Shown here: one piece after another, positions 9,373-32,000 of the stretch | Position numbering within the stretch: the stretch's first letter is position 1 | Layout of the letters: each line of letters begins with the position of its first letter | Assembly (NCBI GenBank): GCA_963705375.1 | Contig: OY970071.1 | Location: 180,001-212,000 of the forward strand | Length of the DNA stretch: 32,000 nucleotides | Reading direction: 5' to 3' | Source: Candidatus Saccharimonadota bacterium | Lineage (GTDB): Archaea > Micrarchaeota > Micrarchaeia > Micrarchaeales > Micrarchaeaceae | Made by a program: the position numbers and the translations under genes | The notes under the pieces: generated by a model | Seen by the model: the letters and a program-made list of their open reading frames with translations, nothing else | Told to the model about the DNA's origin: nothing | Databases searched by the model: none

Positions 9373-9382
9373 GGCATCACGC

Positions 9383-13381: not shown

Positions 13382-13908
13382 TTAGAATAAAGACGTCAAG
13401 CTTATAAACTGAACGTCCTGCGCACCATGAAGTAAGAAACTGAAGCTAGAAAGTGCACCAGGATGATCCAGGCATACCATCGACGCGACACGAAATAACA
13501 CAAAATGCATATATATCTATTCCAGCACACACACGCGGTAAGTGATACTGTGCACATGAATAATAAAACGGACCATAAGCAAACGAATCAAGACGAGCAT
13601 AATGAAATAATGCCAGCCCCGCAGCGTAGGACGGGCTCTCTCGATGGCATAGCCTACTTAAAGCGGCAAGAAGACCAGGAACGAAAAGACAAGGACAAGG
13701 AGGATGAAGGCTCGGATGAAGATATCGTGCTGCCATAGGCTGTGATATCAAAAGCACGCATTCTGCAGAGAACACAGACTTCACCCACCTTGAATTGCTA
13801 AAAAGACACGGAGCGTGAGCGCACTTTGATTTAGCAGACACGCACGTATACAGATAAGATAGTGGTGCTTTGCATTTCAGCAAAAATGACTGACGCAGAC
13901 TGCCGTAA

Positions 13909-13926
13909 GCAAAATGTATAAATATC
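13909..13926 (+). promoter_or_regulatory. BRE/TATA-like element upstream of the multi-HTH gene
   Basis: gcaaaa-tgtataaatatc, with tataaata at 13917-13924. An in-frame GTG at 13948 sits about 27 nt downstream of the box centre (leaderless geometry). The first ATG is at 14086. Confidence 0.35.
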
Positions 13927-14085
13927 TTGAAAAATTGCAGCATTCGCGTGAGAACGCATTCACACAGCGATGATGCAGGTCCCGTCTTCCACCATGATGG
14001 TTGTACGTCAGACATTAGGTTGCGTACCGACTCTTCCATTAATGCGCGCGAAGGCACACATAATCCGCACAGCCTCTGCGAGGAG

Positions 14086-16044
14086 ATGAAATGGCTCTTC
14101 GAGTCGAAACATCTAGACATAGACGAAGTGGCACATAAATCCAAAGTGAGCCGAAGTACAATCTACAATGTTCTAAACGGCACCATTCCACACCGGCAGA
14201 TACTTTACGCACTAGCTTGCGCAATGGATCTGGATGAAGAGGAAATTAAGCACGTGCTAGGGCTTGGCGGATATGCTACGGAGCGCGGCAACACTCTAGG
14301 AGAAAGACTGAAGTGGTTCTTGGAAATTGAAGGGATAACAGAACAAAAGCTGAGTGAAGACGCGGGCATTAACCGACGCGCCATAGCCAGGGTCATCCAC
14401 CACAATGTCGTGCCATACAAAAGCACCGTCCTCGCGCTGGCCGCTGCCATGAAACTTGGTGATGATGAAAAGAATGAGATGTTGGAACTTGCCGGCTATG
14501 CTGCTGAGAAAAGATGCACGTTGGGGGGCGAGCTGGAAAGACTTTCGATGCAGAAACATCTCACTAAAAAAGACTTGAGCGAACGCTCTGGATTGGGTCT
14601 GAGCACAATATACGATGTTCTTAACGATGCAGTGGCACCTCTGCAGTTAACAGTCCTAAAGATAATCGACGCTATCGGGCTTAGCGAGGAGGAAAAGCGG
14701 AGCGTCCTGGAATTGGGCAACTACGTTGAGCAAAGAGGCACGTTGGGCGGAGAGTTGAAAAGACAGGCGATGGAGAAAAAGCTGACGAAGGACCAATTGA
14801 GTGAGCTTTTTGGCGTTCATGAAGATACCATGAACCACATTTTCGCCAATGAAACTGTTCCTAAGTTCGAAACGCTTTTTGCGCTGACGTCGGCCATGAA
14901 AATAGAGGGCACAACTCAGAGATACATTTACAAACTTGCAGGATATGATCTGTGCACATTAGGAGGTGAACTGAGGTTGCTTGCCGCACAGAGAGGGCTT
15001 GCAAAGGACAATCTCTCAGCCCTCACAGGCATAAAGATACGAAAGATACGCGCGATATTCCTGAATTCGGTCATGCCGAAATTTGAGGACATTTCTGCGT
15101 TGGTCTCTGCCATGAAACTTGATGGTGCCGCGCATAGGTATATAGATAATCTTGCAGGACGCGGTACGTGCACATTAGGATGCGAACTGCATATGCTTGC
15201 AGCAGAGAGAGGTTTCACCGAAGACGCTCTGGGAGATTCGGCCGCGATAGGCAGAGACACTGTGAGGGGGATTCTCCGCGATGAGATAGTGCCCAAGTTC
15301 GAGGACATTTTTGGGCTGGTCTCGGCGATGAAACTAGAAGATATGGAGCTGAGGTACGTTTACAAGCTTGCAGGATACGATCTGTTCACACTAGGGGGAG
15401 AACTGAGGCTGTTTGCTGCAGAGAGAGGATTTTCAGAGGATGCGTTGGTGGCGCTTTCGGGCGTTGTTCATCGTAGGTTAAACGCGATCTTCCATAATGA
15501 GGCAGCACCGTCCACATGGGACCTCCTAAAAATAGCCAACAGCCTCGAGCTTGGCGACGCTGAAATGAGCTATGTATTAAAACTTGCAGGAATTAGCACA
15601 GAGAGAAGAAGCACGTTAGGTGAAGAGCTGGAGAGATTGGCCATACTGGGACGGTTAGACAAAAACATGTTGAGTGCGACTGCAAAGGTTGGTCGCAACA
15701 CATTAGACGGCATCCTTCACAACGAGACCACGCCATCCCTAGAGGCCCTCACAAGAATAGCGAACGCAATGAATCTAGAGTATGAGAATAGGGAGTATGT
15801 ATTAGAGCTGGTAGGTGGTGCAGAGCGGAGCGAAACGCCGGGCGGAGAGCTTGAGCGGCTCATGTACCTGAAAGGCATGACACAAGCGACGCTGTGCAAG
15901 GACTCTGGTGTGCACCGCACTTTCATAATTGAAGCACTCCGTAACAAAAAGGCAATAGGGGACAAGACAGCCCGAAAGCTCATCGGTGCACTTCACCTTG
16001 AAGAGGAAGACCTGGAATACGTATACAAGCTGTTGGGTTATGAC
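14086..16044 (+). repeat. Nine in-frame tandem coding repeats (207-225 nt each) encoding the HTH modules
   Basis: Unit boundaries, set by the recurring T(L/P)G(G/E)(E/R)L: 14086, 14293, 14518, 14740, 14956, 15172, 15388, 15613, 15835. The units are diverged at the DNA level (an old duplication, not an assembly artefact). Units 4-6 share PKFE(T/D)(L/I)xxLxSAMK(I/L). Confidence 0.8.
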
Positions 16045-16698
16045 GTTGCGCGCATAGAAAAGATGCTGCGCAAAGAAGAAGAGACAGTTGCTTGCGTCAA
16101 GAAGAAAAGCATAAGCGAGAGACTGAATGACATGGCAGACACACTTAATGGCGCAGGAATACCTGTTACAGAAGAGGCAAGGAACAAAGCCGCAGAATAC
16201 GTCCAAAAATGCGTTAACGACGGTTTCATTAGAGGGAGCAGGGCATCTGCCAACGTGGCAGCAGTGGCACTGTACGCATCATGCAGGAATGCAGACGTCG
16301 TAGTGGTCCTTGAAGACATTACGCAGGCGTTGGGACTCAAGCACGACGCAGTCCACAACACCTATGAAGCTATGCGAAGTGAGCTCGGGATTGCGGCAAA
16401 ACCCCTTGACACTGCGAGCTTTGTGGAGTACTACCTTAGCAAGCTTGCACGCAGAGACGTTCTAGATGACGCACTGAACCTGCTGAATGACCACGCAGGG
16501 TCAATGTTCTCAGGTAAGGACCAGAGGAAAATCGCAGCGACAGTGATCTGCACTGCAAGCATAAGGTCAGACGCAGGGCACATAGATCCTGCGGATCTAA
16601 TGAAAGAATGCGGCCTCGTTACGTCACCTAACGTCAAGCTTGAAACACTATTGGACATGTGCAACAAGCTAGAGAAGAGGATTCGGGAAGGAAATTAG
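14086..16698 (+). CDS. Chimeric regulator candidate with nine tandem Cro/C1 (XRE)-type HTH modules fused to a TFB/TFIIB two-cyclin core (no Zn ribbon, no B-reader)
   Basis: Nine 70-75-aa units each fit the pattern TLGGEL+.L....G.....L....G+....+..+.......P....+..+..A+.L......Y+..LAGY. The C-terminus (16111-16695) fits the TFB cyclin repeats: ARNKAAEYVQKCVNDGFIRGSRASANVAAVALYASCRNADVVVVLEDITQALGLKHDAVHNTYEAMRSELGI, then FVEYYLSKL...ALNLLN...FSGKDQRKIAATVICTASIRSDAGHIDPADLMKECGLV. The 5' end is uncertain: ATG 14086 is preferred, the alternatives are GTG 13948 or TTG 13927 (ORF track). Confidence 0.8.
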   Translation: MKWLFESKHLDIDEVAHKSKVSRSTIYNVLNGTIPHRQILYALACAMDLDEEEIKHVLGLGGYATERGNTLGERLKWFLEIEGITEQKLSEDAGINRRAIARVIHHNVVPYKSTVLALAAAMKLGDDEKNEMLELAGYAAEKRCTLGGELERLSMQKHLTKKDLSERSGLGLSTIYDVLNDAVAPLQLTVLKIIDAIGLSEEEKRSVLELGNYVEQRGTLGGELKRQAMEKKLTKDQLSELFGVHEDTMNHIFANETVPKFETLFALTSAMKIEGTTQRYIYKLAGYDLCTLGGELRLLAAQRGLAKDNLSALTGIKIRKIRAIFLNSVMPKFEDISALVSAMKLDGAAHRYIDNLAGRGTCTLGCELHMLAAERGFTEDALGDSAAIGRDTVRGILRDEIVPKFEDIFGLVSAMKLEDMELRYVYKLAGYDLFTLGGELRLFAAERGFSEDALVALSGVVHRRLNAIFHNEAAPSTWDLLKIANSLELGDAEMSYVLKLAGISTERRSTLGEELERLAILGRLDKNMLSATAKVGRNTLDGILHNETTPSLEALTRIANAMNLEYENREYVLELVGGAERSETPGGELERLMYLKGMTQATLCKDSGVHRTFIIEALRNKKAIGDKTARKLIGALHLEEEDLEYVYKLLGYDVARIEKMLRKEEETVACVKKKSISERLNDMADTLNGAGIPVTEEARNKAAEYVQKCVNDGFIRGSRASANVAAVALYASCRNADVVVVLEDITQALGLKHDAVHNTYEAMRSELGIAAKPLDTASFVEYYLSKLARRDVLDDALNLLNDHAGSMFSGKDQRKIAATVICTASIRSDAGHIDPADLMKECGLVTSPNVKLETLLDMCNKLEKRIREGN

Positions 16699-16849
16699 GC
16701 GGCAAGACGGCCATCTTCACCCTGTTCTTTAGCAGAACTACAACGCAGATATACATAATTACTTTACAAAAACGCAGACATACCCAAATAAATTTACACA
16801 AATAATACTGCTTTAAGTATCTGATGTTTCTCATCTTCACCGTGACATT

Positions 16850-17209
16850 ATGGACAAGTTAAACAAGACAACTGAGGAAAGAGCGCAGAAAATAACAGAG
16901 TACATGGAAGCAGCCAAACCGTTACTTGAGAGCAACATAGTCGTTCATAGAGATTTCGGCATATGGGTCAAAAAGCACATAGATTACGAACAAATAATTA
17001 ATGGCACTCTTTTTGTGCTGGCAGAACTCAAGGACGATACAAGTCCAGATAAAATTCTAAAGAACATGCATTTGTATGGTTATGACATAAAAAACATGGA
17101 CGCGATAGTCTCTGCCGTGAGCAGCTTCTCACCTAAAGGAGAGGCGTTCAGCAGATACTATTGGGAAATGAGAGTGGAAGACATCAACAAAAATCACTTG
17201 CGTAAGTGA
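16850..17209 (+). CDS. Hypothetical protein (119 aa)
   Basis: Clean ORF with an ATG start and the A/T-rich sequence tttaagtatc about 35 nt upstream. No recognised motif. Confidence 0.55.
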   Translation: MDKLNKTTEERAQKITEYMEAAKPLLESNIVVHRDFGIWVKKHIDYEQIINGTLFVLAELKDDTSPDKILKNMHLYGYDIKNMDAIVSAVSSFSPKGEAFSRYYWEMRVEDINKNHLRK

Positions 17210-17401
17210 GGTCATCGCCCAGAAACAAGCAGCACACACTTCACGGATGCAAATCAGCATGCTTTTGCTTTATTGAAATTGCACGCGTATTGGTAACGCT
17301 AGCTAATCCTTTCAATGTTGCCAGATACTTCCTCAACCGCAGGGCACCAAGCATACGCATAAAAAAGGACACTCACAAGGCAGGAACAATATAAAGTGCA
17401 G

Positions 17402-18208
17402 ATGATGAAAGAAGGCAAAAACAAGACAATATTCATAACAGGCTGCAGGGGAGGTATCGGCAGATATTCGGCAATAACTCTTGCGAAAAGAGGGCACAGA
17501 GTGATTGCGACCACTCACACTTCCGCTTCTGCAAAAGAAATAAATGCGCTGGCCGCAGCTCAAAAATTGAATATAGAGTCTTTCAAGTTGGACGTAACAG
17601 TGCCCAAAGACAGAGACAGGATACGTGACTATGACATCGACGTCTTGATAAACAACGCCGGAATAGGAGAATCCGGACCGTTGGCCGAAATCAACGTTGA
17701 CAGAGTAAGGAACAATTTCGAAGTGAACGTCTTTGGTCCATTGGAATTGACACAGCTAGCATTAAAAAAGATGATGAAAAAGGACAGCGGGACTGTAATC
17801 TTCGTAAGCTCTTTGATAGGACGCATCGCATTCCCATTCCTTGGCTCGTATTCCATGACCAAATTCTCCGTTTCGTGCGAGGCCGATGTCCTTCGGCAGG
17901 AATTGTACAGGATCACAAAGAACGTCAACGTTTCGGTAGTGGAGCTTGGAGCGTATCATACTGGATTCAACCAGAGGATGCTTGCACGAAAATACGAATG
18001 GCTGAGAAAACGCTCGTATTTCAATGAAAAGATCAGAGAAATAAAGATGCGTGAAGAGAAGTTCTTCAGCACGATGGAATCGGAATCAGTACGAACAGCA
18101 GTCAATCAAATAGTTAAAGCGGCGGAATCGAGCAGACCAAGGTTCAGGTACGTGGCACCATTCTGGCAGGGGACCCTTGTGCAGCTTGGAAGAGCATTAG
18201 GCAAGTAG
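17402..18208 (+). CDS. Short-chain dehydrogenase/reductase (SDR) family oxidoreductase
   Basis: Cofactor motif TGCRGGIGR, NNAG (LINNAGIG), catalytic S...YSMTK. The ATG at 17402 is preferred over the GTG at 17396 from the ORF track. Confidence 0.85.
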   Translation: MMKEGKNKTIFITGCRGGIGRYSAITLAKRGHRVIATTHTSASAKEINALAAAQKLNIESFKLDVTVPKDRDRIRDYDIDVLINNAGIGESGPLAEINVDRVRNNFEVNVFGPLELTQLALKKMMKKDSGTVIFVSSLIGRIAFPFLGSYSMTKFSVSCEADVLRQELYRITKNVNVSVVELGAYHTGFNQRMLARKYEWLRKRSYFNEKIREIKMREEKFFSTMESESVRTAVNQIVKAAESSRPRFRYVAPFWQGTLVQLGRALGK

Positions 18209-18291
18209 CCACACTTCAAAAATCCAGAAACACCAGGTCTTTTTACTATATCCTAAAAGTCACTCTTGAGATTACAAAGAAAAAGAAGGCC

Positions 18292-18309
18292 GTTGCCCTG
18301 TCGGGCAAC
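18292..18309. terminator. Hairpin between convergent genes (SDR / Gly-rich membrane protein)
   Basis: gttgccc-tgtc-gggcaac forms a perfect 7-bp GC-rich stem with a 4-nt loop, in the 135-bp convergent spacer. A-rich 5' flank (aaagaaaaagaa). Confidence 0.35.
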
Positions 18310-18343
18310 AGACCGAATATCGAAATTGAAGAGGCAGATCTCA

Positions 18344-18658
18344 TCACATTGCTTCTAACTTGACGAATCTCACGATGACGAGATTGTAGATCAGAGCAAA
18401 TATCATGCCGCCTATCAATCCACCAACGGCAGAAGCGATTATCGTCACCACAGCACCGATGATGCCTATAGCGCCACCCAGCAAGCCACCCACGGCTGCC
18501 CCAAGAACGAGAGCAACTACCGCATACAGGACGCCTGCTATTAGCCCAGACACTGCAAAGACCTGCGCAGCAGATCCGTATGAGAGCTGATTTATCTTAG
18601 TTCCCATTACACCACCTGCGTAGACTGCCAAGGCAGTGTTTAAATCTCTTATGGGCAC
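18344..18658 (-). CDS. Small Gly/Ala-rich (glycine-zipper-like) membrane protein
   Basis: 104 aa with GxxxG-rich helices: GLIAGVLYAVVALVLGAAVGGLLGGAIGIIGAVVTIIASAVGGLIGGMIFALIY. An alternative start is M18. Confidence 0.5.
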   Translation of the reverse strand: MPIRDLNTALAVYAGGVMGTKINQLSYGSAAQVFAVSGLIAGVLYAVVALVLGAAVGGLLGGAIGIIGAVVTIIASAVGGLIGGMIFALIYNLVIVRFVKLEAM

Positions 18659-20381: not shown

Positions 20382-21314
20382 TCAATTATCTGTTTCGTTA
20401 AACAGTGCCCTCTTAGTCGAATCAAACGGATGGTCCTTGCAGAACGTTACCGCCAGCTTGCCCTCTTGTGTGAACCCCACATCATCCACCATTGACGCTA
20501 CACCAAGCGACTTCTGTTTTGACAGTGCGTCAATGCCAATATAAATTTCTCTTTTGAACCGGTCTCCCCAAACACCATGAATAGCATCTGTAGCCACGTA
20601 AAAGCCCCACTGCGGGTTCAGTGTGCAGAGCTGTTCCGTTGCAATTTGAGTGCTCATGTCCATTATTCGCCCGATAGTGGTTTCCGCTTCATAACCGACA
20701 GCAGCCATCGATGTTACATAATCTTCATTCCATTCGCCTCTTGCCTGCCGCAATAGTGCACAGGATAGAAGCCCTGCAAGCGTTTCTTCGAGGAATGGTC
20801 TATCCCAGGCGAGGTCCATAGTTTCAAACACATTCGATTGAGCGCAATCCAGAAATGAACCCCTTATGTCTGTTTCATTTTTTGATAATTTCCTGACTAC
20901 GAACCTATCAGGTATAACAAGCATTCCTTGCAGCGCAAATAAACCCATTGCCGGTGGCGATACGAATTGCGATCCATACCCGAATCTCTCATTTACTTCA
21001 ATTTGGTAATGATTCAAAGTGGGCAGGAATTCTTCAGGTGCCACTAGCTTCAGCGCGGGTAGTTCTCCTATTTCTGCGCCATATGTTTCCTGGACTTGTG
21101 GAATTAGCGCATAAACCATATTTTGTAGGCTTGAGTCATCAAGCACCACGGGCTCTTGCGGTTCCGTCCACTTCTTGCCTCTCAGCACCAGAAGTTTGCA
21201 TGCTTCCTGGTCGTTCGGCAACTGACAATCCCAGTTTACTGGTAAACTGCAATCCGCACTCCTGAGCAGGTCCTTGTGTGTCTGCCAGACCTCTTGAATA
21301 GACTTGGCCATCAT
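20382..21314 (-). CDS. Hypothetical protein (310 aa, no recognised domain)
   Basis: Long clean ORF of balanced composition, convergent with rtcB and divergent from the giant gene. Confidence 0.6.
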   Translation of the reverse strand: MMAKSIQEVWQTHKDLLRSADCSLPVNWDCQLPNDQEACKLLVLRGKKWTEPQEPVVLDDSSLQNMVYALIPQVQETYGAEIGELPALKLVAPEEFLPTLNHYQIEVNERFGYGSQFVSPPAMGLFALQGMLVIPDRFVVRKLSKNETDIRGSFLDCAQSNVFETMDLAWDRPFLEETLAGLLSCALLRQARGEWNEDYVTSMAAVGYEAETTIGRIMDMSTQIATEQLCTLNPQWGFYVATDAIHGVWGDRFKREIYIGIDALSKQKSLGVASMVDDVGFTQEGKLAVTFCKDHPFDSTKRALFNETDN

Positions 21315-22025
21315 TTCATCAACAGCTAGCCATTCCTTTCGTTCAGATATTTATGCGTGTCTTTTCGTTTGACTCTGGGACAAAAGTCCTTCTCACTCCT
21401 AGATAAGAACCAGAATAGAAAAGGCTACTTGCTGTTTTAAGATGCCTTCTGGGTTCACTCGGTCTAAACGACCTTTTTCTATCGTTCTTTGACGACAGAA
21501 CGGACATTATTACTGATCCGCCTTGCTCTGGTCAATATAATTTGGATGCAAAACGATAAAGATTTTGGCAGAGATAATATAGAAGACCTGAAAAGGTAGA
21601 GTGCCAAAATAATGGTTGACTTATGTCCCAGACTCTTTTCGTTTCATGTTGTTTGTGAAACTTTGTTTGATTGTGAAGGGCCTATTGCCTTCTTAATAAA
21701 AAAGTGGAAAAAGGTTAGCAAAACAAGCAATCCTACACTTCTAATACTATCTTGGTAATTTAAGGAATCTGAAAACTAGAAAGATATAAATATCTCCTGG
21801 AATGGATACTTCCTTGCGGCTTACTGTGGGGGTACATTAACAGTGTGTCGCTAATGTCAAACTTGCGTCAGTAGTATGCATGTTTGCCGACTGTAGTAGG
21901 CTTGGATAGCATGGAGAATAACTATACGTTAGCTGCAACGGCTTTGTTGCCGGTTTTAGGTGTTATGGTGCCTGTGGCATCTGCATCCGTGTCGGCCATA
22001 TGCATGTTCAAAATAGTGTGATACC

Positions 22026-25000
22026 ATGGCGACGCGCACCCGCAAGTTCAATCCGATGCTTCTTCTGATATCAGTGGTCCTGCTGCTTAAAGTTTGCCCC
22101 TACGTAGGGGCATGGACCAGCACAGGCGCCACCGTAACCTGGCAGGGGCACAGTTATCCAGTATTTGATGCGGGCATCGACGCCGGGTGCACATCCACAA
22201 TATACAACAATAATGCGAATTCTAATTCGAAAGTCACTTGCAACGAAGGTCCTTGGTATAATCCCGGTTCCGTATCTGTTACATTAACCTATGCCGGCAC
22301 TGGGCCAGATTTTTATTGCGACAATAGCTCTTGCGCTACCCAGAGCAGCTTACCCCAAGATTGGAAGTATGTCGATGCGTATAAAATAACAGGCACTTCA
22401 GGAGGATTCTCACCAGCTTCATGGTCCTCTTCAGATAATACCTCTGAACTTTATTTCATATTCAAGTACAATCCTGGCACTCTGGGAATAGGTGCGGGGG
22501 GCTTATCCGCAAGATTCTACACCACCACAATCCCACAGGGTCCTGCATCCACCAGCACCTCATTGGTCGCAAGCAACTCGACATATTATCCACAATACAA
22601 CAATTACTACGCGAATTATGGCACGCCCATAACAATCACAGCAACAGTCTCTCCCGCGCCGTCAAATGGAGATACAGTAACGTTCTATGATTCTTGGAAC
22701 TATGGCACGGCCTCCGTGCTGGGCACGGCCACAATACAGAACGGCGTCGCGAAATTCACAACCAGAGCATTACTTGGCGAATGGCACGGCATTACTGCAA
22801 ACTTTTCAGGAGATTCGTCCTATAAGACGAGCACAAGTCCTGCGCTCGGAATAACAATGTATAAGGTCAATTCCACGACATCTCTCTCTTCAAGTTCCAA
22901 CCCGTCGACATACACTTCTTCAATAACGTTCACAGCCACAGTAACACCGACACCTCCGAACGGCGAAACCGTAACGTTCTATGACAGCGGAACACAGATT
23001 GGCACAGGCACTACATCAGGCGGCGTCGTGACATTCACAACGACCACGTTAACACCTGGCACGCATTCGATCACCGCAAGATATCCAGATGACTATTATA
23101 GTCTATATACAAGCACAAGTCCTGCACTTTCACAAACAGTCAACAAGGAACCGACCGCAATAAGCCTCACCTCAAACAGTAACCCATCGACCTATGGCAC
23201 TTCGGTGATTTTCACAGCAACCGTGTCTCCATCCGTTCCGAACGGCGAGACAGTAACATTCTATAACGGAGGAACGCAGATCGGCATAGGAACAACATCA
23301 GGCAGCACCGCGACATTCACCGCGACAACGCTCGCTGCAGGCACATATTCCATAACTGCGACATACTCCGGAGATTCCAATTATATTGGCAGCACAAGCT
23401 CCGCAGTTTCCCAAGTAGTCAGCAAGGTGTCGACCACGACATCTCTCTCTTCAAGTCCCAACCCCGCAATACAGGGCACATCTGTGACATTCACCGCGAC
23501 AGTGTCGCCATCAGTCCCGAACGGTGAGACTGTAACATTCTATAGCATTAACAACGGAACTCAGATTGGAACAGGCACCACGTCAGGAAGTATCGCAACC
23601 TTCACCACTAACACACTTACAGCAGGCACCCGTTCATTCACCGCAACATACTCTGGCAATTCTAATTATGCAAGCAGTACAAGTTCTGCAGTTTCGCAAG
23701 CAGTCAATAAGGTGTCGACCACGACATCTCTCTCCTCGAGTTTCAATCCTTCAATACATGGTGCCTCTGTGACATTCACCGCAACAGTGTCGCCATCGGT
23801 TCCGAACGGCGAGACCGTGACGTTCTATGACAATTCTGTACAGATTGGCACAGGCACCACCACCTCTAGCAGTGTCGCAACTTTCACCACTAATGCACTT
23901 ACAGCAGGCACTCATTCGATCACAGCAACATATTACGGCGATGCACACTTCCTAGGCAGCAGCTCTACTCTATCCCAAACAATAAACGCTGGAACACCAA
24001 CAGCAACAAGCCTCACCTCGAGCATTAACCCATCGACCCATGGCACTTCAGTGACATTCACAGCAACAGTGTCCCCATCAGTTCCGAACGGCGAGACCGT
24101 GACGTTCTATAACGGCGGGACACAGATCGGCACCGGAACGACATCAGGCAGCGTTGTGACATTCACCACGGCCGTGCTAGCCGTAGGAACAGACCCCATA
24201 ACTGCGACATACTCCGGAGATGTCAATTTCTTCGGCAGCACAAGCTCTGCAGTTTCGCAGACGGTCAACAAGCAGCCAACCATAATCTCGCTAAATTCGA
24301 ATGCGACCCAATCGCTTTACGGCTCTGCAGCCACATTCACTGCGAGGATATCGACACCGATTATTCCGAACGGCGAGACGGTGACATTCTATGACGGCAC
24401 CAACCAGATAGGTACCAGCTTCACATCAAACAGCACCGCAATACTGACAACAGACGGACTTGCGGCAGGTACTCATTCGATAACTGCCACATATTCTGGC
24501 GATTCCAACTTTACAAGCAGCACGAGCTCTGCAGTCTCGCAGGTCGTCACAAAACTATCCGCATCTACATATACCCCATCTACATGGGTATTGCAAAGCA
24601 ACACGCTTTCTGTTGGCGAACAGGGTCAGAGCTGTGTAAAAGCAAACAGTTACATCTACTGCATGGGAGGTCTAAATTATCCCACTACGGTCCAATCCGC
24701 ACAAATATTATCGAACGGCGGGACCTCAGCATGGGCATCTTCCAGCAACACGCTTAGTTATTCAAGCGCATTCCATAGCTGCGTTTCAGCAAACGGTTAT
24801 GTGTACTGCATGGGCGGCGAGTATTCCCCTGCCGGAGTAGAATACGCGAAGATATTGGGCAATGGACAGCTCGGACAATGGCATGCCCAAAACGCGAGCG
24901 CACAGCTTAGCGCTGGCGTACAGGGCCTGAGCTGCGTCACAGTCAATAGCTACATCTACTGCATGGGAGGTTACAATGCCAGCACAAGCACTTATCTTGG

Positions 25001-28000
25001 AAATATCCAGTATGCGCAGATATCAAGTGGCGGCGGAGCTACAGGACCATGGCATTTGCAAAGTGCCAATACGCTTGTAGCGGGACTTGCTTATGGATCA
25101 TGCGTAACAGCAAACAATTACATCTACTGCATGGGAGGGGTAGGGTATCCTACCACAATAGAATATGCGCCAATAGTCGCAAACGGTGTAGTAGGTTCAT
25201 GGCAGACCATGAATCCCTCTAACATTTATCTTCCAGTTTCACTATATATGGGCAGCTGTGCTGCCGCTGCCGGCTCTATCTACTGCATGGGAGGCCAAAA
25301 TGCGAACGCTGTACAATATGCACGAATATTGAATGGTTCAGGAACATCTGCATGGACATTGCAAAATGCGAGCATGCAGCTCGCAGTAGGTGCAATGTAT
25401 CATAGCTGCATAGCGGCAAACAATTACCTCTACTGCATGGGCGACAATAACAACAGGAACTCTATACAGTACACGCCCCTAGTGACTCCAACAACCACAT
25501 CAGTAAACTCAAACAATAATCCTTCGACTTACGGAGCGTCAGTAGCGCTCACCGCGGCAGTATTTCCTGCAGTCCCAAACGGCCAGACAGTAACATTCTA
25601 TGACAATTCCATACAGATCGGCACAGCTACCACCTCAAACAGCAATGCAACTATAGCTTCAAGTACGCTTGCAATAGGCACCCACTCAATAACGGCCAGA
25701 TATTCAGGCTACACGAACGCCAAAGGAAGCATAAGCGCAGTCTTGTCTCAGATAGTCAAGACGCCAACCACCACAAGCCTTACATCAAGTGCAAACCCGT
25801 CAGCTTACGGCAATTCGATAACATTCACAGCCACAGTGTCGCCATCGATACCAAATGGCGAGACGGTGACGTTCTACGACAGCGCCAACCAGATCGGAAC
25901 AGGCACAACAGCAGGCAGCGTCGCAACATTCTCAACAAACGCACTCGCCACAGGCACTCATCAGATAACCGCGACGTACTCTGGAGATTCGAACTTCGTG
26001 ACAAGCACAAGTTCCGCAGTCTCGCAGGTCGTAAATACAAAAGCGACCACAACCTCTCTTGCTTCAAGTGCCAACCCGTCAACATATGGCAATTCAGTGA
26101 CATTCACAGCCACCATATCTCCATCCGTGCCAAACGGAGAGACCGTTACATTCTATGATAATGGCGCAACGATCGGCACGAGCACAACGTTTGCAAGTGT
26201 CGCCACTTTCGCAACCAATGCGTTCACAGCAGGCACTCATCCGATAACCGCGACGTACGCTGGAGATTCGAACTTCGTGACAAGCACAAGTTCCGCAGTC
26301 TCGCAGGTCGTCAACAAGAAGCCGACCGCAACGTCTCTTGCTTCAAGTGCAAATCCGACTACATACGGCAATTCAATCACATTCACCGCCACGGTGTCGC
26401 CATCAGTCCCGAACGGCGAGACAGTGACGTTCTACGACAGCTCGAATCAGATAGGCACAGGCACAACTTCTGCGAATGTCGCAACATTCACGACTAACGC
26501 GTTTGCAGCGGGCACCCATCCGATAACCGCAACATATTCTGGCGATTCCAATTTTGTTGGCAGCACAAGTTCTGCAGTATCCCAAATTGTCAACAAGAAG
26601 TCAACAACAAGCACTCTAATTTCAGGCGCCAACCCATCAACATACGGCAATTCGATCACATTCACAGCCACAGTGTCGCCATCAATACCGAACGGCGAGA
26701 CAGTGACGTTCTATGACAGCGCCAACCAGATAGGAACAGGCACAACGGCAGGCAGTGTCGCAACCTTCTCAACAAACACACTAGTCACAGGCACTCACCC
26801 AGTAACCGCAACGTACTCTGGAGATTCAAACTTCGTGACAAGCACAAGTTCCGCAGTCTCTCAGGTCGTCAACACAAGGTCGACATCAACAGCCCTCACA
26901 TCAAACTCAAACCCGTCAACATACACCGCTTCAATCACATTCACAGCCACAGTGTCGCCATCGGTTCCAAACGGTGAGACAGTAACGTTCTATGACAGCG
27001 CCAATCAGATCGGCACAGGCACAACATCAGGCAGCGTTGCAACCTTCTCAACAAACGCGCTCACGGCAGGCACTCATCCAATAACCGCAACGTACTCTGG
27101 AGATTCAAACTTCGTGACAAGCACAAGTTCCGCAGTCTCGCAGGTCGTAAACACAAAGTCGACAGCAACAGCCCTCACATCAAACTCCAACCCATCAACA
27201 TACACCGCTTCAATCACATTCACAGCCACAGTGTCGCCATCGGTTCCAAACGGTGAGACAGTAACGTTCTATGACAGCGCCAATCAGATCGGCACAGGCA
27301 CAACATCAGGCAGCGTTGCAACCTTATCAACAAACGCGCTCACGGCAGGCACTCATCCAATAACCGCAACATACTCTGGCGATTCCAACTTCATTACAAG
27401 CACAAGTTCCGCAGTCTCTCAGGTCGTAAACACAAAGTCGACAGCAACAGCCCTCACATCAAACTCAAACCCGTCAACATACACATCTTCGATAATGTTC
27501 ACCGCTACGGTATCTCCATCAGTTCCGAACGGAGAGACCGTCACATTCTATGACAATTCTATACAGGTCGGAATAGGAACAACCTCTTCAAGTGTCGCAA
27601 CATTCACGACCAATGCATTTACAGCAGGCACCTATCAGATAACCGCGACATACTCTGGAGATTCGAACTTCGTGACAAGTACAAGTTCCGCAGTCTCGCA
27701 GGTCGTAAACACAAAGTCGACAGCAACAGCCCTCACATCAAACGCCAACCCATCAACATACACTGCTTCAATCACATTCACAGCCACAGTGTCGCCATCG
27801 GTTCCAAACGGTGAGACAGTAACGTTCTATGACAGCGCCAATCAGATCGGCACAGGCACAACATCAGGCAGCGTTGCAACCTTATCAACAAACGCGCTCA
27901 CGGCAGGCACTCATCCAATAACCGCAACATACTCTGGCGATTCCAACTTCATTACAAGCACAAGTTCCGCAGTCTCTCAGGTCGTCAACACAAGGTCTAC

Positions 28001-31000
28001 AGCAACAGCCCTCACATCAAACTCCAACCCGTCAACATACACATCTTCGATAATGTTCACCGCTACGGTATCTCCATCAGTTCCGAACGGCGAGACAGTC
28101 ACATTCTATGACAATTCTATACAGATCGGTACGGGCATAACATCTTCAAGCACCGCAACCTTCTCCACAAACTCACTCATAGCAGGCACTCATCCAATAA
28201 CCGCAACATACTCTGGCGATTCCAACTTCATTACAAGCACAAGTTCCGCAGTCTCTCAGGTCGTCAACACAAGGTCTACAGCAACAGCCCTCACATCAAA
28301 CTCCAACCCGTCAACATACACATCTTCGATAATGTTCACCGCTACGGTATCTCCATCAGTTCCGAACGGCGAGACAGTCACATTCTATGACAATTCTATA
28401 CAGATCGGTACGGGCATAACATCTTCAAGCACCGCAACCTTCTCCACAAACTCACTCATAGCAGGCACTCAGTCAATTACGGCAACATATTCCGGCGATT
28501 CCAATTTCATAGGCAGCACAAGCACCCCAATATCTCAGGTCGTCAACGATAAATCCACCACAACAAGTCTTGTCTCTAACGCAAACCCATCAACATACAG
28601 CAACACAATCACGTTCACCGCCACAGTGTCCCCATCAGTACCAAATGACGAGACAGTAACATTCTATAACAGCGGAACGCAGATCGGAACCGGAACGACC
28701 TCTTCAAGCACTGCAATGTTCACAACCAACGCACTTGTTGCTGGAACTCAATACATTACGGCAACATATTCCGGCGACTCTAACTTCACCGGCAGCACGA
28801 GTTCCGCATTCTCACAGACAGTAGACAAGGAATCAACAATGACAAGTCTGATTTCAAGCGCTAACCCATCACTTTATGGCTCTAATGTAATGTTCACAGC
28901 CACAGTGTCGCCATCAGTTCCGAACGGCGAAAGCATAGTCTTCTATGCAGGCACTGTGACTCCTGCAAACCTCATTGGAAGCTCAACAACCTCTAGCAGC
29001 GCTGCAACACTGACAACGGCTTTCTTTAAGACCGGCACTGCGCAGATAACGGCTGCGTATGAAGGCGATGCCAACTTTGTAACAAGCAACAGCATTCCTC
29101 TATCACAGACGCTCAATCCAGTTACTGGACAATCCGTTCTGGTGAGCACCACGCTAAATTCCATAGACGTAGGCTCAGCAGCCACAGTATCTGCAAGCCT
29201 TTCAGGTCTCTTGTTCAACACTAGCGCGGCAACATACTCGTGGAGCACGACCGGCTCATGCCCTGATTATGTGAATCCTGGCAACGTTCAGTCGTTCGTT
29301 TACTATTCGACAGCGTTAGGGACAACAGCAAACTGCAGATTCTCAGTTTCAGTGCATGACGCATACGGCAATTCAGGATCGGGAATCTCAAACACATTTA
29401 CAGTAGACGCAATCCCAACAGTGTCTGTATCAGGCACAGCAATTGCAGATGATAGCCAAACAATAACGCTCACGGCGACGGCAACAGGCACGGGCCTCAC
29501 ATACCAGTGGTACAATGACACGACCAACACGCCAGCCCAGATTGGCGGTGCAACATCCAACGTATTTACTGAAACAGCGAACGTTGTAGGCACATTCTAC
29601 TATTATGTAGTGGTCACTGACCAGAACAATGCACAAGTCAGGTCTGGAGACTCTGAGGTCGTGGTATATGCACTGCCTACGGTCAGTGTCTCAGGCACAT
29701 CAGCCGCAGACACAGGTCAGACCATAACCCTTACCGCGGCAGCGACAGGCACGGGCCTCACATACCAGTGGTACAATGACTCCACAGGAACGCCTAGCCA
29801 GATACACGGTGCCGTGTCCAGCACACTAACAAAGACTGCAGTTTCGGCAGGCACACTCAAGTATTATGTGCTGGTCACAGACCTTAATGGCAAGCAAGCG
29901 CAATCAGCAAATTCGACTGTTATAGTCTCGGCACCTCCAACAGTCAGCACCTCAGGCACGACCACTGCAGACGTTGGCCAAACCATAACGCTCACAGCAA
30001 CAGCATCAGGAACCGGCCTGACTTACCAGTGGTACAATGATAGCACAGGAACACCAGTTGCAATCACATTAGGCGGAACATCGAACACGTTCACTGAAAC
30101 AGCGAACGTCGTAGGCACATTCTACTATTATGTAGTGGCCACAGACCAGAACAACGTACAGGCAAGGTCTGCAGATTCCGAAGTGATGGTTTCTGCACTG
30201 CCGACAGTCAGCATCTCAGGCACTTCTGCCGCAGACACAGGCCAGACCATAACCCTTACCGCGGCAGCGACAGGCACTGGCCTCACATACCAGTGGTACA
30301 ACGACACCAGCACACCAATCCAGATTCATGGAGCAGTATCTAACACATTGACAAAGACCGCAGGTGCGACAGGCACGTTCAAGTACTATGTCATAGTTAC
30401 AGATTCTAACAACGAGCAGGCACAATCCGCTGATTCGCAGGTTGTCGTTTCAACGGTGCCAGTGAACAGCGGAGTCGAAGTCTCAGGCACGACCACTGCA
30501 GACGTTAGCCAAACCATTACACTCACAGCAACAGCCACAGGCACAGGCTTGACATACCAATGGTACAATGACACGACCAACACGCCAGTTCAGATAGCAG
30601 GAGCAACATCCAACGTATTTACTGAAACAGCAAACGCAATTGGAACATTCAACTATTATGTTGTGGTCACAGACCAGAACAACGTACAGGCAAGATCTGC
30701 AGATTCCGAAGTGATGGTTTCTGCACTGCCGACAGTCAGCGTCTCAGGCACTTCTGCCGCAGACACAGGCCAGACCATAACCCTTACCGCGGCAGCAACG
30801 GGCACTGGACTCACATACCAGTGGTACAACGACACCACAGGAACGCCTGGCCAGATACACGGCGCAGTGTCCAGCACGTTAACAAAGACGGCAGGTGCGA
30901 CAGGCACATTCGAATACTACGTTCTGGTCACAGACCTGAACGGCAAGCAGGCACAATCAGCAAATTCACCTGTCACAGTCTCGGCACTGCCGACAGTCAG

Positions 31001-31868
31001 CACATCAGGCACGACTTCTGTCGACACAGGCAACATAATAACATTTACAGCAACGGCAACAGGCACTGGTCTGACATACCAGTGGTACAATGACAGTGGA
31101 GAGGCTCCGGCCCAGATCGCTGGTGCAACGTCCAACACATTAACAAGGACTGCTGGCGCTACAGGGGCTTTTGATTATTATGCTGTTGTGACCGACTCCA
31201 ACGGCGAGCACGCACAATCTTCTGATTCTGAGGTCCTGGTATCTCCTGCACCGACAGTAAGCGTTTCCGGCACAACTGCAATTGACACAGGCCAAACCAT
31301 AACGCTCACAGCAACAGCTACTGGCACGGGCCTGACATACCAGTGGTACAATGACACAACAGGAACGCCGATCAGGGTGCGCGGAGCGATATCCAGCACG
31401 CTAACAAGAAGGGCGGGCACAATAGGCACGTTCAAGTACTATGTAATGGTTACAGATCTGAACAACGAGCAGGTGCAGTCTGCAAACGCATCAGTGCTGG
31501 TTTCAGTACTGCCGGCAGTCAGCGCATCAGGCACTGCTGCAGCAGATGCAGGTCAGGCAATAACCCTGACAGCGTCAACAACGGGCGGAACAGGCCCAAT
31601 GTCATACCAGTGGTACAATGACAGCGGGGAAGCACCGGCCCAGATTGCAGGCGCAACATCCAACACGTTCGCTGAAACAGCGAACGTCGTAGGCACATTC
31701 TACTATTATGTAGTGGCTACTGACCACTATGGCAATCACGCACAGTCGTCTCCAGACCTGCAGGTGGTCGTGACACCTTCACCGACAGTAAGCGTTTCGG
31801 GCACATCTTCAGCAGACGTCGGCCAGAGCATAACACTTAACTCATTGCGACAGGGACAGACCCACTAA
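22026..31868 (+). CDS. Giant secreted/cell-surface modular repeat protein (3280 aa in this frame; continues in another frame to at least 31996)
   Basis: Signal-peptide-like N-terminus (MATRTRKFNPMLLLISVVLLLKVCPYVGAW), a unique ~150-aa domain, then the repeat arrays listed separately. The single ORF spans 9.8 kb. The composition is Thr/Ser/Asn/Gly-rich, as in archaeal surface proteins. No membrane anchor is visible before the window ends. Confidence 0.85.
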   Translation: MATRTRKFNPMLLLISVVLLLKVCPYVGAWTSTGATVTWQGHSYPVFDAGIDAGCTSTIYNNNANSNSKVTCNEGPWYNPGSVSVTLTYAGTGPDFYCDNSSCATQSSLPQDWKYVDAYKITGTSGGFSPASWSSSDNTSELYFIFKYNPGTLGIGAGGLSARFYTTTIPQGPASTSTSLVASNSTYYPQYNNYYANYGTPITITATVSPAPSNGDTVTFYDSWNYGTASVLGTATIQNGVAKFTTRALLGEWHGITANFSGDSSYKTSTSPALGITMYKVNSTTSLSSSSNPSTYTSSITFTATVTPTPPNGETVTFYDSGTQIGTGTTSGGVVTFTTTTLTPGTHSITARYPDDYYSLYTSTSPALSQTVNKEPTAISLTSNSNPSTYGTSVIFTATVSPSVPNGETVTFYNGGTQIGIGTTSGSTATFTATTLAAGTYSITATYSGDSNYIGSTSSAVSQVVSKVSTTTSLSSSPNPAIQGTSVTFTATVSPSVPNGETVTFYSINNGTQIGTGTTSGSIATFTTNTLTAGTRSFTATYSGNSNYASSTSSAVSQAVNKVSTTTSLSSSFNPSIHGASVTFTATVSPSVPNGETVTFYDNSVQIGTGTTTSSSVATFTTNALTAGTHSITATYYGDAHFLGSSSTLSQTINAGTPTATSLTSSINPSTHGTSVTFTATVSPSVPNGETVTFYNGGTQIGTGTTSGSVVTFTTAVLAVGTDPITATYSGDVNFFGSTSSAVSQTVNKQPTIISLNSNATQSLYGSAATFTARISTPIIPNGETVTFYDGTNQIGTSFTSNSTAILTTDGLAAGTHSITATYSGDSNFTSSTSSAVSQVVTKLSASTYTPSTWVLQSNTLSVGEQGQSCVKANSYIYCMGGLNYPTTVQSAQILSNGGTSAWASSSNTLSYSSAFHSCVSANGYVYCMGGEYSPAGVEYAKILGNGQLGQWHAQNASAQLSAGVQGLSCVTVNSYIYCMGGYNASTSTYLGNIQYAQISSGGGATGPWHLQSANTLVAGLAYGSCVTANNYIYCMGGVGYPTTIEYAPIVANGVVGSWQTMNPSNIYLPVSLYMGSCAAAAGSIYCMGGQNANAVQYARILNGSGTSAWTLQNASMQLAVGAMYHSCIAANNYLYCMGDNNNRNSIQYTPLVTPTTTSVNSNNNPSTYGASVALTAAVFPAVPNGQTVTFYDNSIQIGTATTSNSNATIASSTLAIGTHSITARYSGYTNAKGSISAVLSQIVKTPTTTSLTSSANPSAYGNSITFTATVSPSIPNGETVTFYDSANQIGTGTTAGSVATFSTNALATGTHQITATYSGDSNFVTSTSSAVSQVVNTKATTTSLASSANPSTYGNSVTFTATISPSVPNGETVTFYDNGATIGTSTTFASVATFATNAFTAGTHPITATYAGDSNFVTSTSSAVSQVVNKKPTATSLASSANPTTYGNSITFTATVSPSVPNGETVTFYDSSNQIGTGTTSANVATFTTNAFAAGTHPITATYSGDSNFVGSTSSAVSQIVNKKSTTSTLISGANPSTYGNSITFTATVSPSIPNGETVTFYDSANQIGTGTTAGSVATFSTNTLVTGTHPVTATYSGDSNFVTSTSSAVSQVVNTRSTSTALTSNSNPSTYTASITFTATVSPSVPNGETVTFYDSANQIGTGTTSGSVATFSTNALTAGTHPITATYSGDSNFVTSTSSAVSQVVNTKSTATALTSNSNPSTYTASITFTATVSPSVPNGETVTFYDSANQIGTGTTSGSVATLSTNALTAGTHPITATYSGDSNFITSTSSAVSQVVNTKSTATALTSNSNPSTYTSSIMFTATVSPSVPNGETVTFYDNSIQVGIGTTSSSVATFTTNAFTAGTYQITATYSGDSNFVTSTSSAVSQVVNTKSTATALTSNANPSTYTASITFTATVSPSVPNGETVTFYDSANQIGTGTTSGSVATLSTNALTAGTHPITATYSGDSNFITSTSSAVSQVVNTRSTATALTSNSNPSTYTSSIMFTATVSPSVPNGETVTFYDNSIQIGTGITSSSTATFSTNSLIAGTHPITATYSGDSNFITSTSSAVSQVVNTRSTATALTSNSNPSTYTSSIMFTATVSPSVPNGETVTFYDNSIQIGTGITSSSTATFSTNSLIAGTQSITATYSGDSNFIGSTSTPISQVVNDKSTTTSLVSNANPSTYSNTITFTATVSPSVPNDETVTFYNSGTQIGTGTTSSSTAMFTTNALVAGTQYITATYSGDSNFTGSTSSAFSQTVDKESTMTSLISSANPSLYGSNVMFTATVSPSVPNGESIVFYAGTVTPANLIGSSTTSSSAATLTTAFFKTGTAQITAAYEGDANFVTSNSIPLSQTLNPVTGQSVLVSTTLNSIDVGSAATVSASLSGLLFNTSAATYSWSTTGSCPDYVNPGNVQSFVYYSTALGTTANCRFSVSVHDAYGNSGSGISNTFTVDAIPTVSVSGTAIADDSQTITLTATATGTGLTYQWYNDTTNTPAQIGGATSNVFTETANVVGTFYYYVVVTDQNNAQVRSGDSEVVVYALPTVSVSGTSAADTGQTITLTAAATGTGLTYQWYNDSTGTPSQIHGAVSSTLTKTAVSAGTLKYYVLVTDLNGKQAQSANSTVIVSAPPTVSTSGTTTADVGQTITLTATASGTGLTYQWYNDSTGTPVAITLGGTSNTFTETANVVGTFYYYVVATDQNNVQARSADSEVMVSALPTVSISGTSAADTGQTITLTAAATGTGLTYQWYNDTSTPIQIHGAVSNTLTKTAGATGTFKYYVIVTDSNNEQAQSADSQVVVSTVPVNSGVEVSGTTTADVSQTITLTATATGTGLTYQWYNDTTNTPVQIAGATSNVFTETANAIGTFNYYVVVTDQNNVQARSADSEVMVSALPTVSVSGTSAADTGQTITLTAAATGTGLTYQWYNDTTGTPGQIHGAVSSTLTKTAGATGTFEYYVLVTDLNGKQAQSANSPVTVSALPTVSTSGTTSVDTGNIITFTATATGTGLTYQWYNDSGEAPAQIAGATSNTLTRTAGATGAFDYYAVVTDSNGEHAQSSDSEVLVSPAPTVSVSGTTAIDTGQTITLTATATGTGLTYQWYNDTTGTPIRVRGAISSTLTRRAGTIGTFKYYVMVTDLNNEQVQSANASVLVSVLPAVSASGTAAADAGQAITLTASTTGGTGPMSYQWYNDSGEAPAQIAGATSNTFAETANVVGTFYYYVVATDHYGNHAQSSPDLQVVVTPSPTVSVSGTSSADVGQSITLNSLRQGQTH
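22548..24554 (+). repeat. Ig-like array 1 with 7 tandem ~93-aa units (bacterial Ig-like group-3 / Big_3_5-like pattern)
   Basis: Recurrent ...NPSTYG.S(V/I)TFTATVSPSVPNGETVTFYD...QIGTGTT....ATF.T..L.AGTH.ITATYSGDSNF..STSSAVSQ.V.K. The first unit is degenerate and longer. Confidence 0.8.
24555..25487 (+). repeat. Six Kelch-like beta-propeller blades (49-56 aa period)
   Basis: The tac-tgc-atg-gg (YCMG) anchor occurs at 24657, 24804, 24957, 25125, 25281 and 25431. Each blade reads SC(V/A/I).AN.Y(I/V/L)YCMGG....... (Y/S)A.I...G....W, giving the Kelch-type GG doublet plus conserved Y and W. Confidence 0.7.
25488..29123 (+). repeat. Ig-like array 2 with 13 tandem 279-bp (93-aa) units
   Basis: 3636 nt = 13.0 x 279. 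Same unit consensus as array 1. The central units (about 26880-28480) are near-identical at the DNA level. Confidence 0.85.
27903..28470 (+). repeat. Apparently perfect back-to-back duplication of one 279-bp unit
   Basis: 27903-28181 and 28182-28460 read identically by eye, with 0 mismatches found. Identity continues for ~10 nt into the next unit and breaks at ggcactcaTCC versus ggcactcaGTC. Confidence 0.8.
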
Positions 31869-31996
31869 GATACCAGTGGTACAACGACACAAACGCGATA
31901 CGACATCGAACAACCCAAGCATCAGGAACAGCGAACTTCGTTGAAACCGCAGGCGCAACAGGCACATTCCACTATCAGGCAGTGGTCACTGACTAA
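29409..31996 (+). repeat. Array of at least 10 tandem ~87-89-aa YQWY-type Ig-like units
   Basis: Unit consensus (A/P)LPTVS(V/T)SGT..AD.GQTITLTA.ATGTGLTYQWYND(T/S)TGTP.QI.GA.S..(F/L)T.TA...GTF.YYV(V/L)VTD.N..QA.S..S.V.VS. The YQWY anchor occurs at 29502, 29763, 30024, 30288, 30555, 30816, 31077, 31338, 31605 and 31871. Confidence 0.85.
31841..31996 (+). pseudogene. Frame-shifted continuation of the giant gene (10th YQWY unit), ending in an in-repeat stop
   Basis: The frame beginning at 31841 reads LIATGTDPLRYQWYNDTNAIRHRTTQASGTANFVETAGATGTFHYQAVVTD*, a recognisable repeat unit, whereas the annotated frame reads ...SITLNSLRQGQTH*. This is either a real disruption or a sequencing/assembly error. 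Confidence 0.55.
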
Positions 31997-32000
31997 ACAG

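Follow-up and report, generated by a model that had tools for sequence, protein, structure and literature searches.

The 32,000-nucleotide (nt) stretch of contig OY970071.1 analysed here (positions 180,001 to 212,000 of the forward strand; hereafter the window) carries a giant gene whose product is, on balance, likely to be a Sec-exported, fibrillar and adhesin-like cell-surface protein of an archaeon, probably one of the Micrarchaeota. The gene is a single plus-strand open reading frame (ORF) at 22026-31868 encoding 3,280 amino acids (aa), and both the ORF and its domain assignments are genuine. In order, the protein comprises a putative signal peptide, an orphan N-terminal domain, seven immunoglobulin (Ig)-like Big_3_5 units, a six-bladed Kelch propeller, thirteen further Big_3_5 units, a divergent linker domain and an array of a second Ig-like family. 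A first-pass annotation, made by a model from the letters of the window, had proposed this module map for one ORF of at least 9.8 kb, and Pfam, unit alignment, Tandem Repeats Finder and AlphaFold show the map to be correct. Its statement that the ORF runs to the window edge does not hold, as a stop codon (TAA, 31866-31868) lies inside the window, 132 nt before its end.

Architecture and composition

The same annotation had made its Ig-like and Kelch assignments depend on profile searches, and these uphold both. Pfam Big_3_5 (PF16640) scores 984.9 bits against a cut-off of 35.5 (E = 0), in 20 tandem stretches with full-length matches (positions 2-88 of 88). Pfam Ig_7 (PF19081, a CHU_C-associated Ig-like family) scores 63.4 bits against a cut-off of 27.3, in eight stretches. 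Kelch_6 (48.9 bits, 5e-13, cut-off 25.3) and Kelch_1 (22.6 bits, 8e-5, cut-off 20.1) both exceed their cut-offs over the whole protein, with no stretch individually significant. Weak Pfam and NCBIfam matches within the Big_3_5 units (tRNA_Me_trans_C, DNA_binding_1/Ogt and Ada) were dismissed as repeat-driven noise; most fall below the cut-off and no individual stretch is significant.

The product is identical to a public protein (P0036), whose gene call likewise ends at 3,280 aa, and three window proteins map to one NCBI/ENA contig of 1,209,602 bp. Its composition is typical of extracellular proteins: Ser and Thr make up 34 % of residues, Asp and Glu 4.0 %, and Lys and Arg 1.8 %, giving 5.8 % charged residues, in contrast to 20-28 % in the cytoplasmic neighbours. 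Five antisense ORFs within the gene (25825-26103, 28943-29248, 29303-29593, 30656-30907 and 31178-31435) were rejected as by-products of this biased composition. N-X-S/T sequons are depleted, with 27 observed and ~73 expected from composition, and, although six Asn and ~40 % Ser/Thr are present in the consensus Big_3_5 unit, no sequon occurs in it.

The Big_3_5 stalk

The propeller divides the Big_3_5 array, delimited from Pfam and a unit alignment, into units A1-A7 (aa 179-842; 22560-24551, plus strand), of which A1 is divergent, and A8-A20 (aa 1156-2362; 25491-29111, plus strand), in which a strict 93-aa period runs from A9 to A19. Each of the 20 units is 92-95 aa long, and the Pfam count of seven plus thirteen agrees with the number of 93-aa Ig-like repeats first read from the translation. 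Tandem Repeats Finder independently reports a 279-nt period with 10.4 copies and 82 % matches. Because the ratio of nonsynonymous to synonymous substitution rates (dN/dS) among stalk units has a median of 0.16, the stalk has evolved as constrained coding sequence under purifying selection.

Units A13-A18 (26868-28541, plus strand) form a recently duplicated block with DNA identities of 94-99 % (95-99 % among A13, A14 and A16; 94 % between A17 and A18). The longest exact repeats in this block are 290 nt (27903/28182) and 221 nt (27207/27765). Most units elsewhere are mutually just 56-85 % identical at the DNA level. The concern raised at first pass, that the ORF might be a collapsed or chimeric assembly, is thus unlikely to apply to most of the array, whereas the copy number within A13-A18 is uncertain.

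The Kelch propeller

The propeller spans aa 843-1155 (24552-25490, plus strand), as supported by Pfam, sequence matches in the PDB, AlphaFold (AF2) and Foldseek. It consists of six ~50-aa blades, each with a C-x8-C...YCMGG pattern, and the six YCMG motifs are spaced 49-56 aa apart. Its sequence matches in the PDB include the designed Kelch protein SAKe6 (2e-9) and Plasmodium (Pf) Kelch13 (5e-6). An AF2 model from an alignment of 24 relatives has a predicted local distance difference test (pLDDT) score of 90.2 and a predicted template modelling (pTM) score of 0.91. When this model was searched against the PDB with Foldseek, the best 50 matches were all Kelch domains. The top matches were six-bladed, namely LZTR1 (E 3e-14, TM-score 0.79), KLHDC2, KLHDC3, KLHDC10 and KLHL proteins, with TM-scores of 0.75-0.79. 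The six-blade Kelch-like propeller claimed at first pass is therefore borne out by profiles and by the predicted structure, in which six blades of four strands each are seen.

In the model, a strand at residues E11-12 (W11) lies ahead of blade 1, and only three C-terminal strands are present in the last blade. Because the N-terminal W-strand completes the last blade, the chain would enter and leave at the same blade, with adjacent termini. Because entry and exit adjoin in one blade, the propeller should sit as a side knob on the stalk and, by standard Kelch topology, its loop-rich face would be free. Within a blade, the two Cys face one another from adjacent strands of a hairpin (C27/C36; strands 26-30 and 33-37), and both are nearly invariant throughout the propeller family. 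This predicted geometry fits one disulfide per blade, as expected extracellularly.

In reference genomes, the propeller family was found in Micrarchaeota (which give the best match, at 39 %), Nitrososphaerales/Conexivisphaerales and Marsarchaeota. By sequence comparison, the propeller of the giant protein falls in an archaeal subfamily that is marked by a conserved pair of Cys in each blade and occurs mainly in Micrarchaeota. Homologues from Nitrososphaerales are ~365-aa proteins with an N-terminal transmembrane helix, while Micrarchaeota also carry the propeller in proteins of 1,800-2,750 aa, in one of which (L004) it directly adjoins Big_3_5 and MBG_2 domains. All matches of the homologue search fall within about 0.55-1.75 times the query length, so that longer and shorter relatives are probably underrepresented. 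Indeed, the propeller query did not return P0036 or P0037, although both carry a propeller of the same family. The notion that all propeller relatives are short was accordingly rejected as a length bias of the search, since a genome scan found the larger proteins.

Several stand-alone propeller homologues (P0001, P0002, P0008 and L016-L018) begin with a charged stretch, a (K)GQSA-x-EYL motif and then a hydrophobic helix of ~20 residues. An N-terminus such as KGQSALEYL resembles an archaeal type IV pilin-like signal, and the propeller is thus possibly also presented on pilin-like proteins, with neither Pfam nor NCBIfam reporting a class III signal family for these homologues. The window protein differs in having an ordinary Sec-type N-terminus.

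Six-bladed Kelch enzymes exist. The propeller could in principle be an enzyme displayed on the stalk, such as a carbohydrate-active Kelch domain like those of NanM or the galactose oxidase family, and some relatives weakly match the NANM and Glyoxal_oxid_N profiles. We consider this very improbable, as every top structural match is a Kelch domain that binds proteins or peptides, no enzyme family exceeds its cut-off for the giant protein in Pfam or NCBIfam, and the invariant residues of the family are structural (C, Y, G and W). The propeller loops vary within the family.

The N-terminal region and upstream spacer

The putative Sec signal peptide (aa 1-29; 22026-22112, plus strand) was recognised by eye rather than by a predictor, which is in line with the first-pass claim. 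The N-terminus is basic and then hydrophobic (MATRTRKFNPMLLLISVVLLLKVCPYVGA, followed by W), with a cleavage-like site between VGA and W. A Cys-Pro pair directly follows the hydrophobic core (LLKVC-P, 22086-22100, aa 21-25), as it does in a related protein, P0039 (LLAAC-P, aa 8-12), described below. The P0039 sequence is similar to a lipobox (L-A-A-C), and anchoring through an N-terminal lipid is thus a possibility.

The orphan domain that follows (aa 30-178; 22113-22559, plus strand) is ~150 aa long and contains four Cys, at aa 55, 72, 98 and 103. An exhaustive phmmer search with aa 1-205 against 1.84e9 representative proteins matched only the giant protein itself, and the domain has no match in the PDB or Pfam. 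The first-pass description of a unique, Cys-containing domain of this size is thereby strengthened. A single-sequence AF2 model of the domain was unusable (pLDDT 32.7).

Upstream of the gene, a divergent intergenic spacer (21315-22025) separates it from a 310-aa gene on the minus strand (20382-21314). At 711 bp the spacer is long, as had been remarked at first pass. Its reported A/T-richness is ordinary, with a G+C content of 39.9 % (48.6 % in the window as a whole) that falls within the 33-51 % range of the other spacers in the window. The sole TATA-like element in the spacer, GATATAAATA at 21784, lies 242 nt 5' of the ATG of the giant gene and would imply a long leader. A small hydrophobic ORF of 36 codons (MENNYTLAATALLPVLGVMVPVASASVSAICMFKIV, then a stop; 21911-22021, plus strand) ends 4 nt before the same ATG.

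The divergent segment and the second Ig-like family

After unit A20 lies a divergent linker domain of ~100 aa with two Cys (aa 2363-2462; 29112-29411, plus strand). The first-pass annotation had correctly set this segment apart (as 29124-29408), and its assignment as an Ig/PKD-like domain was unsupported by any of the three comparisons. The segment has no Pfam match, no PDB match below E 0.3, and only a non-significant alignment to the profile of the following repeat family (hhalign, E 0.055).

Units B1-B9 (aa 2463-3245; 29412-31760, plus strand) make up the second Ig-like family. The array holds nine intact YQWYND units of 87-89 aa and a broken tenth, and Tandem Repeats Finder reports a 261-nt period with 7.3 copies. 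Besides the Ig_7 matches, one stretch matches a K319L-like PKD profile (31.9 bits, cut-off 27), and the Ig-like nature of the units is supported by a match to the Ig-like domain protein 9ncf_S in the PDB (1e-5). At least ten units had been counted at first pass; nine stand as intact Ig_7-type units, whereas the tenth is broken by a frameshift. Two subtypes alternate along the array (B1, B3, B5 and B9; B2, B4, B6 and B8), with DNA identities of 75-87 % among units of one subtype and 65-70 % for neighbouring units. This alternation points to duplication in steps of two units and to low identity between adjacent domains.

Relatives of the giant protein

The contig of a 1,812-aa protein (P0039) is also 1,209,602 bp long, and this protein very probably represents a paralogue encoded by the same genome. 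Behind a signal peptide and an N-terminal domain of its own come ~16 near-identical Big_3_5 units, then a C-terminal module and finally a T/S/N/P-rich linker, one transmembrane helix and a basic tail (RR/KK). A second relative, L022, is reconstituted from an upstream gene and P0037 to ~3,530 aa and has the same linker, helix and basic tail. In L022, a 1-nt frameshift in a Kelch blade (within 9800-10120) splits the gene into two parts, 7770-9947 and 10001-18424.

Both proteins resemble the giant protein in their signal peptide and near-identical Big_3_5 units (67 % and 54 % identity, respectively), and L022 also shares the disulfide-type Kelch propeller family. They differ in several respects. 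P0039 lacks a propeller and has a different N-terminal domain, while L022 carries several propellers at its N-terminal end rather than one in mid-stalk. Neither has an Ig_7 array, and both have the C-terminal module and transmembrane anchor that are missing from the giant ORF. Archaeal proteins with B-type repeats also end in a linker, a transmembrane helix and a basic tail. The PGF tripeptide is absent from the transmembrane-tailed paralogue and relatives.

Similar layouts are found in bacteria. Among the best full-length matches, six proteins (P0058, P0071, P0073, P0074, P0108 and P0119) have a Big_3_5 array interrupted once by 400-620 aa, and in two of these, P0058 (3,688 aa) and P0108 (Ca. 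Angelobacter, 2,843 aa), Pfam detects Kelch repeats within this interruption. These 'Ig-like domain repeat proteins' share the stalk-propeller-stalk layout of the giant protein, with 18-24 Big_3_5 units that are 43-47 % identical to its stalk units. In contrast to it, the bacterial giants have generic Kelch_1/4 repeats missed by the hidden Markov model of the archaeal propeller, and terminal DUF11 and DUF7933 modules. Because bacterial giants carry Kelch repeats within Big_3_5 arrays, the plan is by sequence comparison not unique and is less special than earlier implied.

The broken 3' end

The tenth unit of the second family, B10 (31761-31996, plus strand; delimited by alignment with its sister units), lacks one base after 31839 relative to them, so that frame 1 closes at 31866-31868. 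Homology extends beyond the deletion in a different frame (..LIATGTDPLRYQWYND..FHYQAVVTD), where a further stop (TAA, 31994-31996) removes the final strand of the domain. Among the B units, B10 has diverged furthest, with a mean DNA identity of 62 % compared with 66-73 % for the others. Programmed frameshifting was considered and rejected: the interval from the out-of-frame stop (31838-31840) to the frame-1 stop contains no slippery heptamer, and there is a second lesion further on.

In agreement with the first-pass remark that no C-terminal anchor is visible, aa 30-3280 contain no transmembrane helix or sorting motif. The ORF has no archaeosortase-type ending (PGF motif, transmembrane helix and basic tail), nor a Pfam match to CHU_C or Por_Secre_tail, the C-terminal sorting domains linked to the type IX secretion system; it ends mid-domain. 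Because the paralogue and relatives carry an anchor, that of the giant protein has plausibly been lost or is located beyond the window. Scans of genome and metagenome contigs for exact 52-mers, made to extend the window, gave no match, and a metagenome search at the protein level, made with the 3' end, yielded only relatives of no more than 44 % identity. No downstream fragment with B units was recovered from the 1.21-Mb contig, a search whose length range a fragment of ~750-1,800 aa would escape. The neighbouring 310-aa protein is recorded only on a 1.4-kb Logan contig, and the organism is represented in sequencing run ERR11594402.

The two frame-breaking lesions lie in the last ~160 nt, and none is present in the preceding 9.8 kb. 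Were the rate of the tail to hold throughout, the remainder of the ORF should contain ~123 lesions (P(0) ~ 5e-54), and the clustering of the two at the 3' end is far from random. The C-terminus is either genuinely decaying after a truncating mutation or locally mis-assembled. Under the first explanation, which we hold as possible though short of an even chance, a genuine frameshift removed the C-terminal part and the anchor, and the downstream sequence is degenerating. This is consistent with the clustered lesions, the divergence of B10 and the intact appearance of the other window genes. However, the upstream 9.8 kb is intact, with a dN/dS of ~0.16, such that a truncation would have to be recent or the truncated product still functional. 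The visible tail is also just ~130 nt long, and the single frameshift that splits an otherwise intact giant gene in L022, from a similar-looking assembly, suggests indel errors instead.

The second explanation, which we regard as somewhat less probable still, is that the gene model is in part an assembly artefact: the number of units would be wrong, or the 3' frameshifts would be consensus errors in a gene that is in truth longer and intact. The split in L022 argues in this direction, as do the long exact repeats and high identities of the A13-A18 block, and the recovery of a single 1.2-Mb metagenome contig suggests a long-read assembly. Against this, the moderate identity of most units would allow unambiguous assembly, B10 is unique (no more than 65 % identical to any unit), making mis-mapping unlikely, and the domain order is coherent and matches that of relatives.

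Proposed role at the cell surface

Taken as a Sec-exported fibrillar protein, the product would form a thin stalk of ~30 short-linked Ig-like domains (20 Big_3_5 units, one unassigned domain and 9-10 Ig_7-type units). At an assumed ~4 nm per domain, the stalk would reach a length of the order of 100 nm. Two parts are candidates for binding, namely the lineage-unique N-terminal domain at one end and the propeller placed in line after the seventh stalk unit. By analogy with its relatives, a C-terminal T/S/P-rich linker, one transmembrane helix and a basic tail may hold, or once have held, the protein in the membrane. Because the endings of the paralogue and relatives point to a C-terminal membrane tether, the N-terminal domain and the propeller would lie distal to the cell. 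The protein would then most likely attach its bearer to a second cell, namely a host, or to a matrix.

Three parts define a fibrillar adhesin according to a survey of these proteins, namely a stalk, a domain that mediates adhesion and an anchor (Monzon et al. 2021, PMC8286594). The giant protein has the stalk, with about 30 Ig-like units joined by ~5-aa linkers. Its non-stalk modules are the Kelch propeller and the orphan domain only, and no anchor is present in the ORF as assembled.

Several observations weigh against an adhesin of a micrarchaeon. The assembled ORF breaks off mid-domain (...SITLNSLRQGQTH) without an anchor, and the N-terminal hydrophobic segment could be an uncleaved membrane anchor, in which case the orientation would be the opposite. 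In the fibrillar-adhesin survey (PMC8286594), the main text mentions neither 'Kelch' nor 'propeller', and the Kelch subfamily and the N-terminal domain are putative rather than established binding modules. N-glycosylation sequons are depleted rather than enriched, which is weak evidence since the repeats are not independent. Taxonomy, finally, is indirect, as the window has no marker gene, transfer RNA (tRNA) or ribosomal RNA (rRNA).

The protein could alternatively be a structural component of the envelope or matrix, for instance a fibre of a biofilm or one associated with the S-layer, serving to space, protect or cross-link cells with no recognition of a specific partner. Similar proteins of Mia14 ('Ca. 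Mancarchaeum acidiphilum') have been placed under 'surface layer' architecture (PMC5498576), an ORF that lacks a membrane anchor as assembled could yield a released product, and low charge with high Ser/Thr would suit a matrix polymer. Nevertheless, the unique tip domain and the family-variable propeller loops look like recognition modules, and the paralogue and relatives are membrane-tethered single chains rather than lattice formers. We therefore judge a purely structural role unlikely and favour the adhesin-like reading.

Comparison with known systems

The closest described parallels come from Mia14, which encodes very large, strain-specific secreted proteins that combine a PKD fold with Kelch/YVTN propellers. 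Four of them (MIA14_0152, _0331, _0793 and _0946) account for 2.5 % of the genome and have been proposed to mediate cell-cell contact with the host (PMC5498576). The adhesin or contact function suggested at first pass is likewise an inference, for which these proteins provide the nearest precedent. Compared by description, they resemble the giant protein in being archaeal, very large and secreted, with Ig/PKD-fold repeats and Kelch-type propellers. They differ in their CARDB-like modules and YVTN propellers, neither of which was detected in the giant protein (no CARDB at E <= 0.01 in Pfam), whereas the latter has a stalk of Big_3_5 and Ig_7 units and an orphan N-terminal domain. Filaments between another Micrarchaeon and its host have been seen by cryo-electron tomography, with no protein assigned to them (PMC8975820).

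Other giant adhesins share the general build. As portrayed in two papers (PMC8286594, PMC12077191), fibrillar and RTX adhesins such as SiiE, MpIBP and the Aeromonas RTX adhesin are also monomeric giants whose long tandem Ig-like stalks hold out modules that bind ligands. In RTX adhesins, binding domains can lie within the stalk and not just at its tip. These adhesins depend on a type I secretion system or sortase, while the archaeal relatives of the giant protein use Sec and a transmembrane helix. The giant protein also lacks Ca-binding RTX repeats, and its propeller lies between complete stalk domains rather than inside a split domain.

Adhesin-like proteins of Methanobrevibacter and Methanosphaera (PMC11532034) are likewise archaeal and built of tandem Ig-like 'archaeal big' domains, Pfam PF16640 among others. 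Their transmembrane anchors are N-terminal, C-terminal or both, and mostly N-terminal (PMC11532034). Unlike the giant protein, they have right-handed beta-helix repeats and no Kelch propeller, and they are much shorter.

Genomic context and neighbouring genes

The neighbours of the giant gene include RtcB and a TFIIB-repeat protein, and the genomic context is archaeal. The source is probably, to judge from such sequence comparisons, a Micrarchaeota-type (DPANN) archaeon with a genome of ~1.2 Mb. The first-pass remark that the organism might be an episymbiont fits this context and the best genomic match of the propeller. Searches for tRNA genes and Rfam families in the window found no tRNA, rRNA or marker gene, and a tBLASTn comparison of window proteins with the loci of relatives was uninformative.

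Other window genes have features of their own. For example, a 923-aa protein (13927-16698, plus strand) carries ~9-10 tandem Cro/C1-type helix-turn-helix units of ~70 aa (HTH_3/HTH_31) fused, on the C-terminal side, with one TFIIB cyclin-like repeat (aa 748-817), a combination that is unusual among archaeal transcription factors. A 256-aa protein (12009-12779, minus strand) consists of three ZT_dimer (cation-efflux C-terminal) domains without a membrane part, and 29 nt at the 3' end of its gene are shared with the start of a P-type ATPase gene (9383-12037, minus strand). A protein of 380 aa (3600-4742, plus strand) has an N-terminal zinc ribbon, one transmembrane helix, a Thr-rich linker, a transglutaminase-like DUF553 domain and a Cys-rich tail, and may be another surface protein.

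Significance

The giant protein extends a known picture, as giant Ig-repeat surface proteins are common and similar ones have already been described in a cultured Micrarchaeon. What goes beyond the ordinary is the orphan tip domain, together with an archaeal disulfide-type Kelch subfamily that occurs both in small, possibly pilin-like proteins and on giant stalks. More speculatively, and with considerable doubt on our part, the disulfide-stapled Kelch domain would be a portable host-recognition head of Micrarchaeota, carried on pilin-like proteins as well as giant stalks. The giant protein would then be one of the filaments, visible by cryo-electron tomography, that link Micrarchaeota to hosts lacking a cell wall, with its N-terminal domain setting strain-specific partner choice.

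The means by which DPANN archaea of tiny genome size select their hosts and adhere to them are largely unknown, and the filaments between Micrarchaeota and their hosts are without an assigned protein. A single ~330-kDa stalk protein takes up ~0.8 % of the 1.2-Mb genome considered here (9.8 kb of 1,210 kb). Because of this share, and because a paralogue and relatives follow the same plan, the giant protein is a reasonable candidate for the host interface, and its propeller and orphan tip domain offer two concrete modules for expression and testing.

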